Positions 31,731 through 41,938 of a stretch of 64,000 nucleotides of DNA are shown piece by piece. A program made the position numbers and the translations under genes. Within the stretch, counting starts at the first letter, position 1. Every line of letters begins with the position of its first letter. Source of the DNA: an uncultured delta proteobacterium. Its GTDB lineage: Bacteria > Desulfobacterota > Syntrophia > Syntrophales > UBA2192. Location of the stretch: assembly GCA_963802225.1 (NCBI GenBank), contig CAWDHZ010000012.1, positions 69,972 to 133,971 of the forward strand. Reading direction: 5' to 3'. Under the pieces are notes generated by a model. It was given only the letters and a program-made list of their open reading frames with translations, was not told where the DNA came from and did no database searches.

Positions 31731-31778
31731 TTCACTTCTTCACTCAGACACTCAGACACTTAGACACTTTTAACACTG
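31731..31778. repeat. 8-nt CAGACAC-type tandem array
   Basis: TTCACTTCTTCACTCAGACACTCAGACACTTAGACACTTTTAACACTG. Confidence 0.85.
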
Positions 31779-35396: not shown

Positions 35397-35900
35397 CTAT
35401 GGCTGCTTCTGAAGCTTTTCCTTGCGGATGTGCTCCACGAGCCCGCCTGCCTTGATGAGCCGCTCCATGAAGGGCGGGATCGGGCGGGCCTGGTAGGATT
35501 TCCCGCGGGTGAGGTTCTCGATCTTCCCGTTGATCAGATCGACGGAAAGCCGGTCGCCTTCCTGCAGATCCTCGGCGGCATCGGCCGACTCGAGGAGCGG
35601 CAGCCCGATGTTGAAGGCATTGCGGTAGAAGATCCGGGCAAAGCTCTTCGCGATGATGACGGAGACGCCGGAGGCCTTGATGGCGATAGGGGCGTGCTCC
35701 CGGGACGAGCCGCAGCCGAAGTTTCTTCCCCCCACGATGACATCCCCCGGCGAGACGGCTGAGGCGAATTCGGGTTTTCCGTCGGCAAAGGCGTGCTTTG
35801 CCAGCAAGGCCCCGTCGGAGACATTGCAGTAGCGGGCTGCAATGATGAGATCCGTGTCCACATCATCGCCGAACTTCCAGACTCTACCTTCGAATTTCAT
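35397..35900 (-). CDS. leuD: 3-isopropylmalate / citraconate hydratase small subunit (type II LeuD)
   Basis: 167 aa. MKFEGRVWKFGDDVDTDLIIAARY and GGRNFGCGSSREHAPIAIK are the archaeal-type LeuD pattern. Confidence 0.9.
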   Translation of the reverse strand: MKFEGRVWKFGDDVDTDLIIAARYCNVSDGALLAKHAFADGKPEFASAVSPGDVIVGGRNFGCGSSREHAPIAIKASGVSVIIAKSFARIFYRNAFNIGLPLLESADAAEDLQEGDRLSVDLINGKIENLTRGKSYQARPIPPFMERLIKAGGLVEHIRKEKLQKQP

Positions 35901-35922: not shown

Positions 35923-36020
35923 GTGCCTGAGTGTCTAAGTGTCTGAGTGATCAAGTGATGGAGTGAAGAATGTTAGAAGCTTTCTTTCTTCACTCAGACA
36001 CCATTTCACTCAGACACTGA
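35923..36020. repeat. Inverted pair of CAGACAC-type arrays filling the leuC-leuD spacer
   Basis: Left arm: GTGCCTGAGTGTCTAAGTGTCTGAGTGATCAAGTGATGGAGTGAAGAA. Right arm: TTCTTCACTCAGACACCATTTCACTCAGACACTGA. Confidence 0.85.
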
Positions 36021-36023
36021 TTT

Positions 36024-37283
36024 CTATAATTCCTCAGGAGAGCCGATTCTCCCCAACACCGCCGATGCCGCCGCCACAAAGGGATTGCAGAGAAAGACCT
36101 CGCTCTTCGGGTGGCCCATGCGGCCGACGAAATTGCGGTTCGTCGTCGCCAGCGCCCGCTCGCCCGAGGCAAGGATCCCCATGTGCCCTCCCAGGCAGGG
36201 CCCGCAGCAGGGCGGCCCGATGACGGCGCCGGCCTCGAGGAACGTATCGATGATCCCCTCCTTCATGGCCGCTTGAAGGATGGTCGGAGTAGCCGGGATG
36301 ACGATCAGGCGAAGGCCCGGCGCCTTCTTTCGGCCTTTCAGCAGACTCGCTGCATCCCGCAAATCCTCCAGCCACCCGTTGGTGCAGGAACCGATGAAGA
36401 CCTGATCCAGCGTGACGTTTTTCGCCTCTGAGACCGGCTTCACGTTTGCCGGCGAGGGGGGGAAGGCGATCTGCGGCTCGAGGGAGCTCACGTCGATCGA
36501 AATGGTTTTTTCGTATTTCGCGCCGGCGTCACTCTTGAGGAAAACGGGTTCCCACCGGGCACGGCCCTTCACGTAGGCGCGGGTGGTCTCATCGGGCTCC
36601 ATGATCCCGTTTTTCGCCCCCGCCTCGACGGCCATGTTCGCCATGGCGAACCGGTGCGGCATGGAAAGCGCGCGGAGGGTATCGCCGCAGAACTCGAGAG
36701 CGCTGTACAACGCCCCCTCGACGCCGATCTCGCCGATGAGGCGAAGGATCAGGTCCTTTCCGCCCACGTGCGGCCGCAGGGTTCCCGAATATTGGACCCG
36801 GATTGTCGGCGGGACGCGAAGCCAGATCTCGCCCGTGGCCATCACGGCAGCCATGTCGGTGCTCCCCACACCGGTGGAAAAGGCCCCCAGGGCCCCGTAG
36901 GCGCAGGTGTGACTGTCGGCCCCGATGATCACCTGGCCCGGGACGACCAGGCCCTGCTCCGGCAGAAGCACGTGGCCGATGCCGGCCTCACCGACCTCGT
37001 AATAAAGCTCGAGCTGCTGCTCGCGGGCAAACTCACGCATGAGCTTGGCCTGCTCGGCCGAGGCGATGTCCTTGTTCGGCACGAAATGGTCGGCCACAAG
37101 GGCAACCTTCTTTCGATCGAAGACCCTCGGGGCGCCGATCTCCTTGAAAACCTGGATGGCGATGGGGGCCGTGAAATCATGGGCGAAGGCCAGATCCACC
37201 TTTACCTCGATGAGGTCCCCCGGTGCAACGCTCTCGAGCCCCGCGTGCGTGGCAAGTATTTTCTCCGTGATTGTCATTGGCAT
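36024..37283 (-). CDS. leuC: 3-isopropylmalate / citraconate hydratase large subunit (type II LeuC)
   Basis: 419 aa. MTITEKILATHAG, IGADSHTCAYGALGAF and GSCTNG are aconitase-family motifs. Confidence 0.9.
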   Translation of the reverse strand: MPMTITEKILATHAGLESVAPGDLIEVKVDLAFAHDFTAPIAIQVFKEIGAPRVFDRKKVALVADHFVPNKDIASAEQAKLMREFAREQQLELYYEVGEAGIGHVLLPEQGLVVPGQVIIGADSHTCAYGALGAFSTGVGSTDMAAVMATGEIWLRVPPTIRVQYSGTLRPHVGGKDLILRLIGEIGVEGALYSALEFCGDTLRALSMPHRFAMANMAVEAGAKNGIMEPDETTRAYVKGRARWEPVFLKSDAGAKYEKTISIDVSSLEPQIAFPPSPANVKPVSEAKNVTLDQVFIGSCTNGWLEDLRDAASLLKGRKKAPGLRLIVIPATPTILQAAMKEGIIDTFLEAGAVIGPPCCGPCLGGHMGILASGERALATTNRNFVGRMGHPKSEVFLCNPFVAAASAVLGRIGSPEEL

Positions 37284-37456
37284 CGTTATGCAACTCCAGC
37301 AAAGTGTTCGATAAGAGGTTCTTAACCGAAAGGCTTGTCAAAAATGGCCAAATGCAAGGCAGCCGACATCCCGAGGAGCGAGGCGTACTTAGTGTGTACG
37401 TTGAGCGACGAGGGACGAGGCGAACGCCGCAGAGGGCCGTTTTTCACAAGCCTCCT

Positions 37457-39067
37457 TTAGGCTACGGCCTTGCGGGCTTCCTTGCCGTTCCTGTTGAGCC
37501 GATCCTTGCTCAGCTTGTACTGGATGCTGTCCACCAGGGCAAGCCAGCTTGCCTCGATGACGCTCTCGGAGACCCCGATCGTGCTCCAGATGTCCTTGTC
37601 GTCGCGCGACTCGATGAACACGCGCACTTTTGCCGCCGTGCCCTCGCTGCCCTCGAGGATGTTCACCTTGAAGTCGGTGAGGTGCATCCGGGCAAGCTCG
37701 GGGTAGAATTTCACGAGGGCCTTGCGCAGGGCGTTGTCCAGCGCGTTGATCGGGCCGTTGCCCTCGGCGGCGGTGATCTCCGTGTCCCTGCCCACGATAA
37801 CCTTGATGAGGGCCTGGGCGCGGGAGGGCTCGTTGCCCTGCTTTTCGTTTATAACACGGAAGCATTCGAGATAGAAGGGCTCTTCGAACTCGCCCGTGGC
37901 CTTGCGGATGATGAGGGCAAGGGAGCCGTCGGCGGCTTCGAAGGTGTAGCCTTCGTTTTCCATGTGCTTGATCTCCTCGACGATCCTGCGGCTCCGTGAG
38001 TCGTCATCGCCCAGCGAGAGCCCCAGTTCGGCGGCCTTGTACTCGATGTTGCTCTTGCCGGAGAGATCCGAGACCAGGACCCGGCGGTGATTGCCGGTGA
38101 GCTCGGGCCGGATGTGCTCGTAGGCCTCGGTGTTCTTGAGCACGGCGTGGACGTGGACGCCCCCCTTGTGGGCGAAGGCGCTGCGGCCGACGAAGGGCCT
38201 CGAGTTCACGGGGGTGATGTTGGCGATCTCGCTCACGAAGAGCGACAGTCGCGTGAGCTCTTTGAGCGCGCCCTCGGGCAGGCAGGGCATCTTCATCTTG
38301 ATCTCCAGGTTGGCCATGATGGGGACGAGATCCGCGTTGCCGCATCGCTCGCCATAGCCGTTGATCGTCCCCTGCACCATCCGGACGCCTTTTTCGACGG
38401 CGGCCAGCGTGTTGGCCACGGCAAGCCCCCCGTCGTTGTGGGCGTGGATGCCGAGCCGTTCCCTCGGAATCAGGGCGGCCACCTCGTCCACCACCCGTGC
38501 GATCTCCGAGGGAAGCGTCCCCCCGTTGGTGTCGCAGAGCACGATCATTTCGGCGCCGTTTGTGAAGGCCGCCTCGATCGTCTGAAGGGCGTAGCGGGGG
38601 GTTGCCCGGTAGCCGTCGAAGAAGTGTTCGGCGTCGTAGATGACCTCCTTTTTCTTCGACTTCAAATAAGCAACCGTCTCGCCGATCATGGCGAGGTTCT
38701 CCTTCAGGGAGACCTTCAGAATCTCCTTGACGTGGAAATCCCAGCTCTTGCCGAAGATGGTCACCGTCGGCGTCTGCGCCTCGAGCAGGGCCTGCACGTT
38801 CGGGCACTCGCTGGGCGGGGTGTGAGCCCTTCGCGTGCTCCCGAAGGCGGCAAGGCGCGCGTTTTTGAACTTCACCTTCCGGGCCAGCTCGAAGAAGCGC
38901 ATGTCCTTCGGGTTCGAGCCGGGCCATCCCCCCTCGATGTAGGCGATCCCGAACTCGTCGAGGCGCCTGGCCACGCGGATTTTCTCCTCGGCCGAAAAAC
39001 TCACCTGCTCGCCCTGGGCGCCGTCCCGCAGGGTCGTGTCGTAGATCACAACCGCTCTCTTGTCCAT
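37457..39067 (-). CDS. cimA: (R)-citramalate synthase (LeuA/CimA family)
   Basis: ORF track start 39076 is a TTG. ATG 39067 (MDKRAVVIYDTTLRDGAQGEQVSFS) is preceded by GAGGGGGA. IEGGWPGSNPKD and the roughly 535-aa length with a C-terminal regulatory domain fit CimA-type rather than classical LeuA. Confidence 0.75.
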   Translation of the reverse strand: MDKRAVVIYDTTLRDGAQGEQVSFSAEEKIRVARRLDEFGIAYIEGGWPGSNPKDMRFFELARKVKFKNARLAAFGSTRRAHTPPSECPNVQALLEAQTPTVTIFGKSWDFHVKEILKVSLKENLAMIGETVAYLKSKKKEVIYDAEHFFDGYRATPRYALQTIEAAFTNGAEMIVLCDTNGGTLPSEIARVVDEVAALIPRERLGIHAHNDGGLAVANTLAAVEKGVRMVQGTINGYGERCGNADLVPIMANLEIKMKMPCLPEGALKELTRLSLFVSEIANITPVNSRPFVGRSAFAHKGGVHVHAVLKNTEAYEHIRPELTGNHRRVLVSDLSGKSNIEYKAAELGLSLGDDDSRSRRIVEEIKHMENEGYTFEAADGSLALIIRKATGEFEEPFYLECFRVINEKQGNEPSRAQALIKVIVGRDTEITAAEGNGPINALDNALRKALVKFYPELARMHLTDFKVNILEGSEGTAAKVRVFIESRDDKDIWSTIGVSESVIEASWLALVDSIQYKLSKDRLNRNGKEARKAVA

Positions 39068-39084
39068 CTTTCTCAATCCCCCTC

Positions 39085-39124
39085 GAAATAAAAAATCCGT
39101 TACCAGGGAGCCTGATAACGGATT
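39085..39124 (-). terminator. Attenuator terminator between the leader peptide and cimA
   Basis: The minus strand reads AATCCGTTA-t-CAGG-CTC-CCTG-g-TAACGGATT, followed by TTTTTTATTT. It ends 18 nt before the cimA ATG. Confidence 0.6.
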
Positions 39125-39160
39125 TGGTTGATTCCTTCCGGTTATGCCATCAAGCCATCA

Positions 39161-39238
39161 TCAGCCCCCTACGCCGCCCGGACGTATGCCGATTATGTCG
39201 ATAATAATAGCGATGATGGTGCCGATGATGCTCTTCAT
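39161..39238 (-). CDS. Isoleucine-rich leader peptide (25 aa)
   Basis: ATG AAG AGC ATC ATC GGC ACC ATC ATC GCT ATT ATT ATC GAC ATA ATC GGC ATA CGT CCG GGC GGC GTA GGG GGC TGA = MKSIIGTIIAIIIDIIGIRPGGVGG. 10 of 25 codons are Ile. It lies between a sigma70-like promoter and a terminator, upstream of cimA. Confidence 0.65.
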   Translation of the reverse strand: MKSIIGTIIAIIIDIIGIRPGGVGG

Positions 39239-39269
39239 TTCGAAAATTGAACCTCTTGAAAGTTGGCAG

Positions 39270-39298
39270 AGCATAAAGTGTGCCGACCCTTTTGTCAA
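39270..39298 (-). promoter_or_regulatory. Sigma70-like promoter for the leader-cimA-leuCD transcript
   Basis: The minus strand reads TTGACA (39298-39293), a 17-nt spacer, then TATGCT (39275-39270). It begins 8 nt after the stop of the peptidase gene. Confidence 0.5.
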
Positions 39299-39305
39299 TG
39301 AAATT

Positions 39306-41188
39306 TTATCGTGCCGGCTTTCCATCGCGTCGCGAGCCGCGCCCGGCCCCGCAGAAGAGAAAGACGGCGGCGCCGAGCCACCCGAGAAGTCCCACCGCCT
39401 CGCGCCCTGCGCCCAGCAGGGTCTCGCTTGCGGCCACGACGGGCGCAAGCACGGCCCTCACGCCGGTTCTCAGGCCCTCGTCGGCGGCGATGACATCTGC
39501 CATAGGGGGAGACAGGGTGTAGTAAAGCTCCACGAAGGCCCTGCCCGAGTGGGAGGGCAGGAGGTAGACGTCGCGGAACTCCCTCAGCGTGACCACCCGC
39601 GGCTCCAGTGCCGAGCCGAAGGCCGCCGTGGCGATGAAGCATCCGCCGCCCCCTCCGCCGCTGCTGCTGCCGCTGGCGGGCGGCGGAGCCGCGGTGGTGA
39701 AACTCCATGAACTCGACGACGCAAGAGCAACGCCTTCGCTGTCCTGCACGCCGGTGGTAAGCGTCGCCGTAAAGCTTGTGCTGTAGACCAGGTTCGCCGA
39801 AGGGGTGAAGGTTGCCGTCTGCGTCCCCGCATCGTATGACACGGAACCCGAAACAGGCGAACCTCCCTGAGTAAGCGTGAAGGACGAGGTGGTGATCGAC
39901 GAGGCGCTCATGGTCTCGCTGAACGTGACGGACACCGTTGTGCTAGGGCTCACCACCGTTGCCCCGCTTGAGGGGCTTTGACCGGAGATGGTCGGCGGCA
40001 CTCCCGCCTGGGTAACGTTGAACGTTTTCCCGGCAACGGTCAGCGCACCCGTACGGGATTTAGCGCCCGTGTTCTGCGTCACGGAATAATTCACCGTCCC
40101 GTTCCCCGTACCGCTCGCCCCCGAGGTGACCGTAATCCACCCGGCAGTGCTGACAGCCGTCCAGGCACAGCCGCTCTGCGTTGTGACGGTAACACTGCCG
40201 GAACCCGCCGGCTGGCTCAGGGACTGACTGCTCGGGGAAAGAGAATAACTGCAGGAAGACCCCGTGTATCGAAGGGTGTAATCCCCGAAATTCACGACCG
40301 TGCCGAGATCGGAGTAGGCGATCTTGAAATAGCCCGATTCTCCCCAGCCCGCTCCCCAGCTGTTCTTCACGATGAAGTACTGGCCGGCGTCGCTGTACCC
40401 GACGATGAGGACGGCATGGCCGCCTTCGAGAGACCCCGTCGTGTACGTGTAGACCCCGCCCGAGTATGAATAAAAATCGGTGTAGACATCCATGGTCGTG
40501 ACGAGCGGCCCGTAGCTCACGAGCGCGTCCCTAATGGCGCTCACCGTGGGGGACGTGGTAGTCACGTAGCCCCAGCTCACGATCTGATACGTGGAGGTCT
40601 GGTAGGCGGAGCAGGCGCTGCCGCAGCTGCCATCTCCCCCGGTGTAGGGATAGCAGGTCTCCAGGGGCAGTCCGGTATCCCGGATGTAATTGGAGGCGTA
40701 GGAGATGTACCCCCCGCTGCAGCTGCCCGCGTCGTTTCCGCCCGAGGAGCCGCAGGAGATGAGGACTTGCTCGGAGAGGTTGAGATCGATGCCCGGCGTG
40801 TTTTCGGCGCGCAGAACCGACGATTCCAGGGCCGCTGTCGTGGCGAAGGCCCAGCAACTGCCGCAGCCCCCTTGATTTCTCACGGGTGTAACGAAGTTCA
40901 CCGCTGTTGTTTCGCCAGTCGAGACTCGGCGGCGCGCCCACGATGGGGGGCTCCGCCATGACCATCATCTCCGCTCCGACAGGCATGTCCGGTTTGATCA
41001 GCCCAAGACGGGCCCTTCGCTCCGCCGGGCTGAGTTGTGTCATGGACGTTTTCGCCGGCCTGCCAGTTGGCCTGCTTTGCGGCGATCGCGGCTCTGACCT
41101 GTAAGACCTCATCGGCGAGGGACAACGAAGCGGCGAAGACAATAGAGGCCGCAAGGAGGAAGGCAACACCGATCCGGGTTTTTCTCAT
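39306..41188 (-). pseudogene. Papain-family (C1) cysteine peptidase + BACON/Ig-like domains + CFI-type C-terminal module; N-terminus split over three frames
   Basis: Frame A (41188 down): MRKTRIGVAFLLAASIVFAASLSLADEVLQVRAAIAAKQANWQAGENV (signal + propeptide). Frame B: MTQLSPAERRARLGLI...[12 protein letters not shown]. Frame C (ORF 39306..40901): [26 protein letters not shown]... through the C-terminal [34 protein letters not shown] and a TM helix. Frame switches lie near 41045 and 40900. Confidence 0.7.
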
Positions 41189-41842: not shown

Positions 41843-41938
41843 GAACTGGGGAATTGGGAATCCCGAATCCCTTTTCCTCTTCACTCAGACACTTAGACAC
41901 TCAGACACTCAGACACTCCGTCACTTCCTTTTTCACTG
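41843..41938. repeat. GGGAATN heptamers followed by a CAGACAC-type 8-nt array, downstream of the TolC gene
   Basis: GGAACTG GGGAATT GGGAATC CCGAATC C..., then CTCAGACA CTTAGACA CTCAGACA CTCAGACA (41884-41915). The array overlaps the TolC stop codon. Confidence 0.8.

Follow-up and report, generated by a model that had tools for sequence, protein, structure and literature searches.

The window analysed here is a 64,000-nucleotide (nt) stretch of contig CAWDHZ010000012.1, from an uncultured delta proteobacterium of the Syntrophales, and all positions refer to it. Our subject is a candidate transcription attenuator on its minus strand, which lies directly in front of cimA, the gene for citramalate synthase. 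The element consists of a promoter, a short open reading frame (ORF) rich in isoleucine codons and a hairpin followed by a U-tract. Downstream of cimA lie two genes for the subunits of a leuCD-type isomerase. The positions of these features are collected in Table 1.

Table 1. The leader region and the genes that follow it, with the RNA segments named in the text
Feature	Positions	Strand	Remarks
Sigma-70-type promoter	39270..39298	-	TTGACA (39298-39293), 17-nt spacer, TATGCT (39275-39270)
Shine-Dalgarno (SD)-like AAGAGG	39252..39257	-	13 nt before the leader ATG
Leader ORF MKSIIGTIIAIIIDIIGIRPGGVGG	39161..39238	-	ATG at 39238; UGA stop at 39163-39161, followed by a second in-frame UGA
Segment 1, GAGCAUCAUCGGCACCA	39217..39233	-	Codons 3-8, including Ile4 and Ile5; complementary to segment 2
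Leader AUA codons	39196-39194, 39187-39185	-	
Segment 2a, conserved antiterminator strand GGGGGCUGAUGAUGG	39155..39169	-	Contains the leader stop codon (39163-39161)
Segment 2b, CUUGAUGGC	39146..39154	-	Second, clade-specific antiterminator strand; 2b:3 hairpin -15.1 kcal/mol
Antiterminator strand chosen in the earlier note, AUAACCGGA	39137..39145	-	-5.9 kcal/mol; not conserved
Terminator hairpin (segments 3 and 4), AAAUCCGUUAUCAGG-CUC-CCUGGUAACGGAUUU	39093..39125	-	15-bp stem, -19.9 kcal/mol
U-tract after the terminator	39083..39092	-	Invariant across relatives
cimA, citramalate synthase, first regulated gene	37457..39067	-	TIGR00977, 727 bits (cutoff 450)
leuC-type isopropylmalate/citramalate isomerase, large subunit	36024..37283	-	TIGR02083, 643.5 bits (cutoff 610.65)
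leuD-type small subunit, last operon gene	35397..35900	-	TIGR02087, 201.9 bits (cutoff 108.95)

The promoter agrees with the sigma-70 consensus at 10 of 12 positions and is the best of only two such sites found by a consensus scan of 8 kb. We infer a transcription start near 39263. Relatives carry TTGACA and TAnnnT at equal spacing upstream of their leaders. The leader of the window has 25 codons, 10 of which specify isoleucine (6 AUC, 2 AUU and 2 AUA) and none leucine. As isoleucine accounts for 5.5% of the codons in 42 long ORFs of the window, the probability of at least 10 isoleucines in 24 codons is 2.4e-7. Additionally, in 168 loci, small ORFs with at least 7 isoleucines in 12 codons were found 12 times within 330 nt upstream of cimA and never in the other 2.4 Mb. 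The isoleucine enrichment of the leader is beyond chance. The SD sequence and its spacing to the ATG are conserved in the clade of the window; in other clades, the SD is purine-rich and precedes the leader ATG by 4-16 nt.

An earlier note on this DNA, made from the sequence alone, had described this promoter, the 25-codon ORF with its ten isoleucine codons, two AUA codons and no leucine, and the hairpin with its U-rich tail. All of these were found where the note had placed them. The weakness that it named, an SD about 13 nt from the ATG, is also real.

Gene calls by the Joint Genome Institute (JGI) give a 37-residue leader protein in three relatives (L161:2295-2408, L162:2303-2416 and L166:2294-2407), equivalent to 39274-39161 of the window. 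This call begins at an in-frame ATG within the -10 hexamer TATGCT, ahead of the point where transcription probably starts. The JGI start is probably misplaced, and of the two it is the 25-codon ORF that is plausible.

The U-tract ends at 39083, just 15 nt short of the cimA ATG (39067), which leaves no room for a separate cimA promoter. From its sequence, transcription of cimA would be able to start only at the promoter in Table 1. Past leuD, we read by eye a GC-rich hairpin at about 35357-35326, and the next promoter-like site (35226-35198) lies ahead of Mla-type genes. The operon is therefore cimA-leuC-leuD. The 173-nt gap between cimA and leuC (37284-37456) contains a TTGACA hexamer at 37341-37336 that lacks a convincing -10 box. 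An internal promoter in this gap would let leuCD escape a control that responds to isoleucine only, which matters if LeuCD also serves leucine synthesis.

Alternative RNA structures in the window and its relatives

The leader RNA can form two hairpins of nearly equal stability. Segment 2a pairs with 39121-39106, in the 5' arm of the terminator (segment 3), to give an antiterminator of -20.1 kcal/mol. The same stretch, which holds the 5' arm and the loop, also belongs to the terminator, and thus the two structures are mutually exclusive. With its 15 pairs, the terminator is by far the longest terminator-like site in the 8 kb that we scanned, and TTTTTTATTT lies directly 3' of its stem.

Segment 1 pairs with segment 2 in the minimum free energy fold of the free leader, which contains the 1:2a pairing and the terminator (z = -3.7). 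Copies similar to segment 1 are present at leader codons 8-10 and 15-17. The 1:2 duplex of the window has an energy of -20.1 kcal/mol, which was reached by 6 of 200 shuffles. For the related leaders of the Ile/Leu/Val type described below, 1:2 pairing was reached by 0-2 of 200 shuffles; in several clades, including L002, L003, L006, L007 and L163, it was no better than shuffles. The 1:2 pairing is clade-specific, and optional rather than universal. Segment 2b is kept only in part in L081.

We collected 169 loci through a genome scan, a metagenome scan and eight exact-protein look-ups, the last of which supplied the close relatives. The CimA homologues are metagenome proteins at 89-96% identity, followed by others at 76% and below, and among the matches listed the named ones are mostly metagenome-assembled genomes (MAGs) of Syntrophales. 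About 25 of the 169 loci have the whole arrangement upstream of cimA: a TTGACA-type promoter, an ATG-initiated mini-ORF with an isoleucine run (for instance MFRNIIAIIIISIIIIQGAHSDLMMG, MHYRNLNTIIGIIIGIISPGNSGA and MTASSIIIIGGIIRPDITGGLISA), the antiterminator strand, a spacer, and the terminator. The CimA proteins of these carriers range from 96% down to about 60% identity. The carriers comprise the clade of the window, a 76% clade, MAGs labelled Syntrophus, Syntrophales or Smithella (among them L001, labelled S. aciditrophicus), and Desulfatiglandales-like MAGs. An alignment of cimA upstream regions, which the earlier note had proposed as a check, thus finds the isoleucine-rich mini-ORF and the hairpin conserved in some 25 loci.

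The primary sequence of the terminator (CCGUUAUCAGG ... CCUGRUAACGG) is strikingly conserved despite the divergence of CimA to about 60%, and the conservation of its stem (GUUAUCAG / CUGRUAAC) goes beyond the need of a plain terminator. Every leader ORF has a second conserved block at its 3' end, GCCUGAURAUGG, which is identical to the 3' arm of the terminator (segment 4) and can therefore pair with the 5' arm. The terminator sequence appears frozen because segment 1, with its isoleucine codons AUY AUC, and segments 2, 3 and 4 are successively complementary.

Covariation was found for both structures. In the terminator, 92.7% of the alignment cells are paired, compared with 30-52% in slid controls, and 5 pairs show compensatory changes. 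In the antiterminator, aligned in 28 sequences, 90.7% of the cells are paired (slid controls, 21-54%) and 7 of the 12 pairs are compensated, in 22 cells; the observed compensated pairs or pair types were reached by at most 1 of 500 shuffles. RNAalifold predicted the terminator as the consensus of the full alignment, and it predicted the 2:3 antiterminator de novo when the alignment ended before segment 4. Moreover, the 2:3 duplex has an energy of -14.6 to -24 kcal/mol in all 23 testable loci, values that were reached by at most 10 of 200 dinucleotide shuffles.

These results bear on which strand is the antiterminator. The earlier note had already suspected mutually exclusive structures, and folding identified them as the terminator and the 2a:3 hairpin. 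It had, however, paired AUAACCGGA (39145-39137) with UCCGUUAU and argued that the geometry of this pairing could discriminate between a terminating and a stalled ribosome. The pairing is present in the sequence, but it is weak. The spacer that holds AUAACCGGA shows no conserved pairing and reaches only -2 to -7.8 kcal/mol with segment 3; other clades (-2 to -7 kcal/mol) have no equivalent of the strand, and even in the clade of the window L081 and L162 carry changes in it that are not compensated. As the strand is exposed whether or not a ribosome occupies the stop codon, it could not tell the two states apart. We rejected it as the main switch strand; the conserved and more stable antiterminator uses 39169-39155.

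The hairpin could also have been the terminator of the preceding gene. The upstream neighbour differs among clades and often lies on the divergent strand, and therefore we rejected this reading. In most other phyla among the collected loci, cimA directly follows an aspartokinase gene and has no leader. The only collected locus outside the family with a terminator and a small ORF before cimA is L078, from an Acidobacteria MAG. Its Ile/Thr-rich leader MHPDRGIDTRIAITGITGGTPGG (L078:3820-3960) looks unrelated, and its GC-rich terminator, AGCCCUCACCCG-UCGG-CGGGUGAGGGCU followed by U8, ends 56 nt short of where the cimA match begins. This leader may be an independent invention of cimA attenuation.

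Leader codons and the genes that follow

We built a covariance model, R1, from the 3' end of the leader and the terminator. R1 detects all cimA-proximal copies, with scores of 55-84 bits, and four further ones about 3.5 kb upstream of cimA, in Desulfobacterales-like MAGs (L014:40-208, L020:315-485, L012:366-532 and L015:470-631). These lie in front of an ilvB-ilvN-ilvC-cimA-leuA order. They have segment 2, the terminator and the U-tract, and their leaders are rich in isoleucine, leucine and valine codons (for instance MHKIIAIYNLISLILVLAGVLIICGEHPGLIMA).

The codons of the leaders differ with the genes that they precede. About 19 loci from several clades have cimA, cimA-leuCD, cimA-leuCD-leuB or cimA-leuB after the element, and their leaders contain 5-10 Ile, 0-2 Leu and 0-2 Val. 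Where leuA is included as well (cimA-leuA-leuCD), the leader of L005 has 6 Ile and 3 Leu, and the leaders of L009-L011, L083 and L090 have 5-12 Ile, 7-11 Leu and 0-6 Val. The four ilvBNC-cimA-leuA loci have 5-8 Ile, 5-6 Leu and 2-5 Val. Leader codon content thus tracks operon gene content, as ribosome-mediated sensing predicts; the lineages in this comparison are not independent samples, and we attach no P-value to it. The window element is therefore not unique to cimA; it is the isoleucine-only branch of a wider family of putative branched-chain amino acid attenuators in Desulfobacterota.

The isoleucine codons themselves are also unusual. In the leaders of 22 loci, AUA accounts for 29% of the isoleucine codons; its share is 13% in the cimA genes next to them and 8% across the long ORFs of the window. 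Every leader retains at least one AUA, even where the cimA of that genome has none or one. All of the isoleucine-only leaders have an AUA 22-31 nt before segment 2, which in our footprint model (below) would be about the last stall position that still leaves the antiterminator strand free. AUA is read by a minor, lysidine-modified tRNA-Ile (tRNA-Ile2). It is possible, though we consider it unlikely, that this minor isoacceptor is the true sensor. If so, expression of the citramalate pathway would be tied to how far tRNA-Ile2 is charged and modified (TilS) and not to bulk Ile-tRNA. The excess of AUA could reflect selection for a starvation-sensitive minor isoacceptor, or it could equally reflect an RNA-pairing constraint. 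A sensor of this kind would have a parallel in the CUA codons of the leu leader of Enterobacteria, for which the idea of a starvation-sensitive minor isoacceptor has been discussed (PMC1183508).

A model for isoleucine-dependent attenuation and its alternatives

We modelled the translating ribosome as a 30-nt mask on the window leader, which represents the footprint only. When the mask was placed at the stop codon, the terminator alone formed, and the remaining alternative had only -7 kcal/mol. When it was placed at the early isoleucine codons, the 2a:3 antiterminator formed in the nascent RNA. With the mask at the late isoleucine codons, the codons AUCAUCGGC of segment 1 paired with 2a behind the ribosome, and 2b:3 served as the antiterminator.

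The position of the stop codon points in the same direction. Counted from where the segment-2 core begins, it lies at +2, +5, +13 or +16 nt in all 22 leaders; it is either a UGA inside the core (+2/+5) or a conserved stop 13-16 nt after the core start. The leaders run through the conserved RNA in two different frames, and the end of the core always lies -6 to +8 nt from the first base of the stop. By the footprint model, the segment-2 core would fall inside the footprint of a terminating ribosome. In 14 of the 22 leaders, the last isoleucine codon precedes the core by 20-23 nt, and this would be about the closest stall position that leaves the antiterminator strand free.

Two further features of our alignment A4 lie nearby. 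Whatever the reading frame, a CAUA(G) motif is kept 8-10 nt to the 5' side of segment 2 (columns 17-22; about 39178-39172 in the window). A stop 13 nt after the core start is retained even where the leader ends at an earlier UGA (columns 40-42; about 39152-39150).

Based on these data, we propose that cimA-leuC-leuD is very probably controlled by a ribosome-mediated (leader-peptide) transcription attenuator specific for isoleucine. Most likely, the switch turns cimA-leuCD on only when isoleucine is short. If charged tRNA-Ile is ample, the ribosome would reach the UGA stop, and its footprint would lie over segment 2a and most of 2b. With these strands covered, the 5' arm would pair with segment 4, and RNA polymerase would terminate at the U-tract. 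Conversely, if charged tRNA-Ile is scarce, the ribosome would stall in the isoleucine run, 22-60 nt upstream, and leave segment 2 exposed. Segment 2 would then pair with segment 3 as soon as the latter is synthesized, the terminator would be blocked, and cimA-leuCD would be transcribed. If the leader is not translated at all, the isoleucine codons of segment 1 could sequester segment 2a. The earlier note had likewise proposed that cimA-leuCD expression is coupled to Ile-tRNA charging. Conservation, covariation, stop-codon geometry and the tracking of codons with operon genes support that proposal computationally, so that its overall reading stands and only its choice of antiterminator strand does not.

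Several points weigh against the attenuator that we propose. Its support is wholly computational. The 13-nt gap between SD and ATG is long and suboptimal, and leader translation could be inefficient. The 1:2 'protector' beats shuffles in some clades only, so that the state without translation is not uniformly defined. Additionally, the clade-specific 2b strand of the window could antiterminate without translation. The model would also require RNA polymerase to pause, so as to synchronize the ribosome with the polymerase. As leuCD is normally also needed for leucine, an isoleucine-only control fits poorly unless a second leuCD copy exists or the 173-nt gap between cimA and leuC holds an internal promoter. 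Finally, codons were mutated in candidate ilvB leader peptides of Streptomyces coelicolor and proved dispensable for regulation; those leaders did not act like classical attenuators (PMC1262725).

The Streptomyces result also bears on a different explanation, in which the switch formed by segments 2, 3 and 4 is real but is set by an RNA-binding protein, an uncharged tRNA or a small ligand, and the mini-ORF is incidental or modulatory. The conservation of the hairpin stem far beyond the need of a plain terminator would fit such a factor, as would the CAUA(G) motif, which has no assigned role. However, the chain of complementarity from the isoleucine codons onwards accounts for the stem conservation, and the two alternative helices are not accompanied by any conserved structured domain of the size of an aptamer. 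Rfam gave no match at any threshold, T-box included: in a search of 38500-39900 at E <= 10 no family reached its gathering score (the best, Trp_leader, had 14.9 bits against 41, E = 9.6) and the T-box (RF00230) was not matched at all; at gathering scores, 15 related loci had no match near cimA, again including the T-box. Moreover, the leader codons change in step with the controlled genes, a tracking that an RNA-only factor would not require, and the stop codon is always in or beside segment 2. We regard this explanation as improbable. We give equally little credence to the idea that the leader peptide acts through Rho-dependent polarity, translational coupling or re-initiation, or mRNA stability, with the hairpin as a constitutive, leaky terminator. 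The long SD spacing and the patchy 1:2 pairing agree with it, and because the terminator and the antiterminator are nearly iso-energetic the outcome depends on kinetics. Against this, covariation maintains the antiterminator pairing specifically, and the intrinsic terminator with its U-tract is invariant. In most loci, the distance between the leader stop and the cimA start is 70-90 nt, and it reaches at most about 260 nt, which is too long for coupling.

The mini-ORF might instead encode a functional, small hydrophobic membrane peptide whose transcript ends at the hairpin, with cimA expressed by read-through or from another signal. The leader peptide is indeed hydrophobic, and JGI gene callers annotate an ORF there. 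However, the peptides share only their isoleucine runs; the non-Ile positions vary freely even within the 90-96% clade, in which the RNA elements are invariant. The use of two reading frames and of different stop positions relative to the conserved RNA also speaks against a micro-protein, as do the constant linkage of the element to branched-chain amino acid genes and the lack of space for a cimA promoter past the terminator. We consider this reading very improbable and rejected it.

If the isoleucine attenuator operates as proposed, it would provide regulatory, sequence-independent evidence that the TIGR00977-type synthase of Syntrophales-like anaerobes serves isoleucine synthesis. Genes of this type regularly carry the incorrect annotation 2-isopropylmalate synthase. 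The attenuator likewise suggests that the citramalate route has a leuCD copy of its own, or has co-opted one, in the linked genes. The element would represent a cis-regulatory RNA family without an entry in Rfam that extends across several Desulfobacterota orders, and with R1 one could chart the branched-chain amino acid regulon of these largely uncultured organisms. Additionally, its members may form a natural series in which one switch chassis was re-tuned, through leader codons, from Ile/Leu/Val to Ile and Leu to Ile only, which would illustrate how attenuator specificity evolves. Last, the family suggests that the primary sequence of a terminator can freeze through successive complementarities to the regulatory codons themselves.

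Elsewhere in the window we found no other amino-acid operon or attenuator; it contains genes for polysaccharide synthesis, transporters and histidine kinases. The gene upstream of the attenuator (39306-40901, minus strand) encodes a CFI-box-CTERM domain (NF041770, 94.5 bits) and is unrelated to it; the counterparts in close relatives have Peptidase_C1, BACON and Big_5 domains. Tandem arrays of an 8-nt unit (GTGTCTGA / GTGTCTAA) lie between genes at 31740-31767, 35923-35950, 35990-36017 and 41881-41916, and those in the leuC-leuD gap form an inverted pair. The unit has 14 matches, compared with 3.7 expected, a number that no shuffle reached. These arrays may be an intergenic repeat similar to repetitive extragenic palindromic (REP) elements.

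Relation to known attenuators

By the Rfam searches, the switch is neither a T-box nor a member of the Rfam leader families (Leu_leader, Thr_leader, His_leader, Trp_leader and others). The earlier note knew of no described attenuator for cimA. Our full-text literature searches likewise found no description of a leader-peptide attenuator for cimA or for branched-chain amino acid genes in Desulfobacterota, although a prior computational mention cannot be excluded. The mechanism is classic; its target (cimA), the bacterial group and the RNA family appear to be undescribed. By analogy, the nearest functional counterparts would be the ilvGMEDA and thr attenuators of Enterobacteria, the actinobacterial ilvBNC attenuators and the leucine-rich attenuator peptide of Staphylococcus aureus.

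The T-boxes of Bacillota (ilv-leu and leuA/cimA-type) resemble the element in that tRNA charging sets the choice between terminator and antiterminator before branched-chain genes. In fact, isopropylmalate/citramalate synthases of COG0119 are among T-box targets (PMC12452182). However, a T-box, which is recognized by a stem I specifier domain and the conserved T-box sequence, binds uncharged tRNA directly through a structured leader of 200-300 nt that has no ORF, whereas here sensing would use a translating ribosome. In S. aureus, a leucine-rich attenuator peptide controls the ilv-leu biosynthetic operon (PMC5794164). As in the window, a single branched-chain amino acid dominates the leader. 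That peptide senses leucine and not isoleucine, acts together with CodY, and is unrelated in sequence and taxon.

In the actinobacterial ilvBNC attenuators, a short ORF that contains Ile, Val and Leu codons extends into alternative hairpins ahead of ilvB; a three-hairpin model exists for Corynebacterium glutamicum, and there are candidates in Mycobacterium and Streptomyces (PMC11857589, PMC1262725). These attenuators resemble the four ilvBNC-cimA-leuA members of our family. Unlike them, they belong to another phylum, have unrelated sequences and show no linkage to cimA.

In the attenuators of Enterobacteria (ilvGMEDA, ilvBN, leu, thr, trp, his and pheA), leader codons define the amino acids that are sensed. 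The logic of leader-peptide attenuation is also covered in PMC1183508. The window element is laid out in the same way, with a promoter, a short ORF that has a run of regulatory codons, terminator and antiterminator hairpins that exclude each other, and a U-tract immediately ahead of the first biosynthetic gene. It has no sequence or structure homology to them, and its target is cimA, in the citramalate route, and not ilvA or the ilv genes. The leader of the window would respond to isoleucine only, whereas ilvGMEDA senses isoleucine, leucine and valine, and thr senses threonine and isoleucine. Finally, here the antiterminator strand itself holds the stop codon of the leader, and the 1:2 element is optional.

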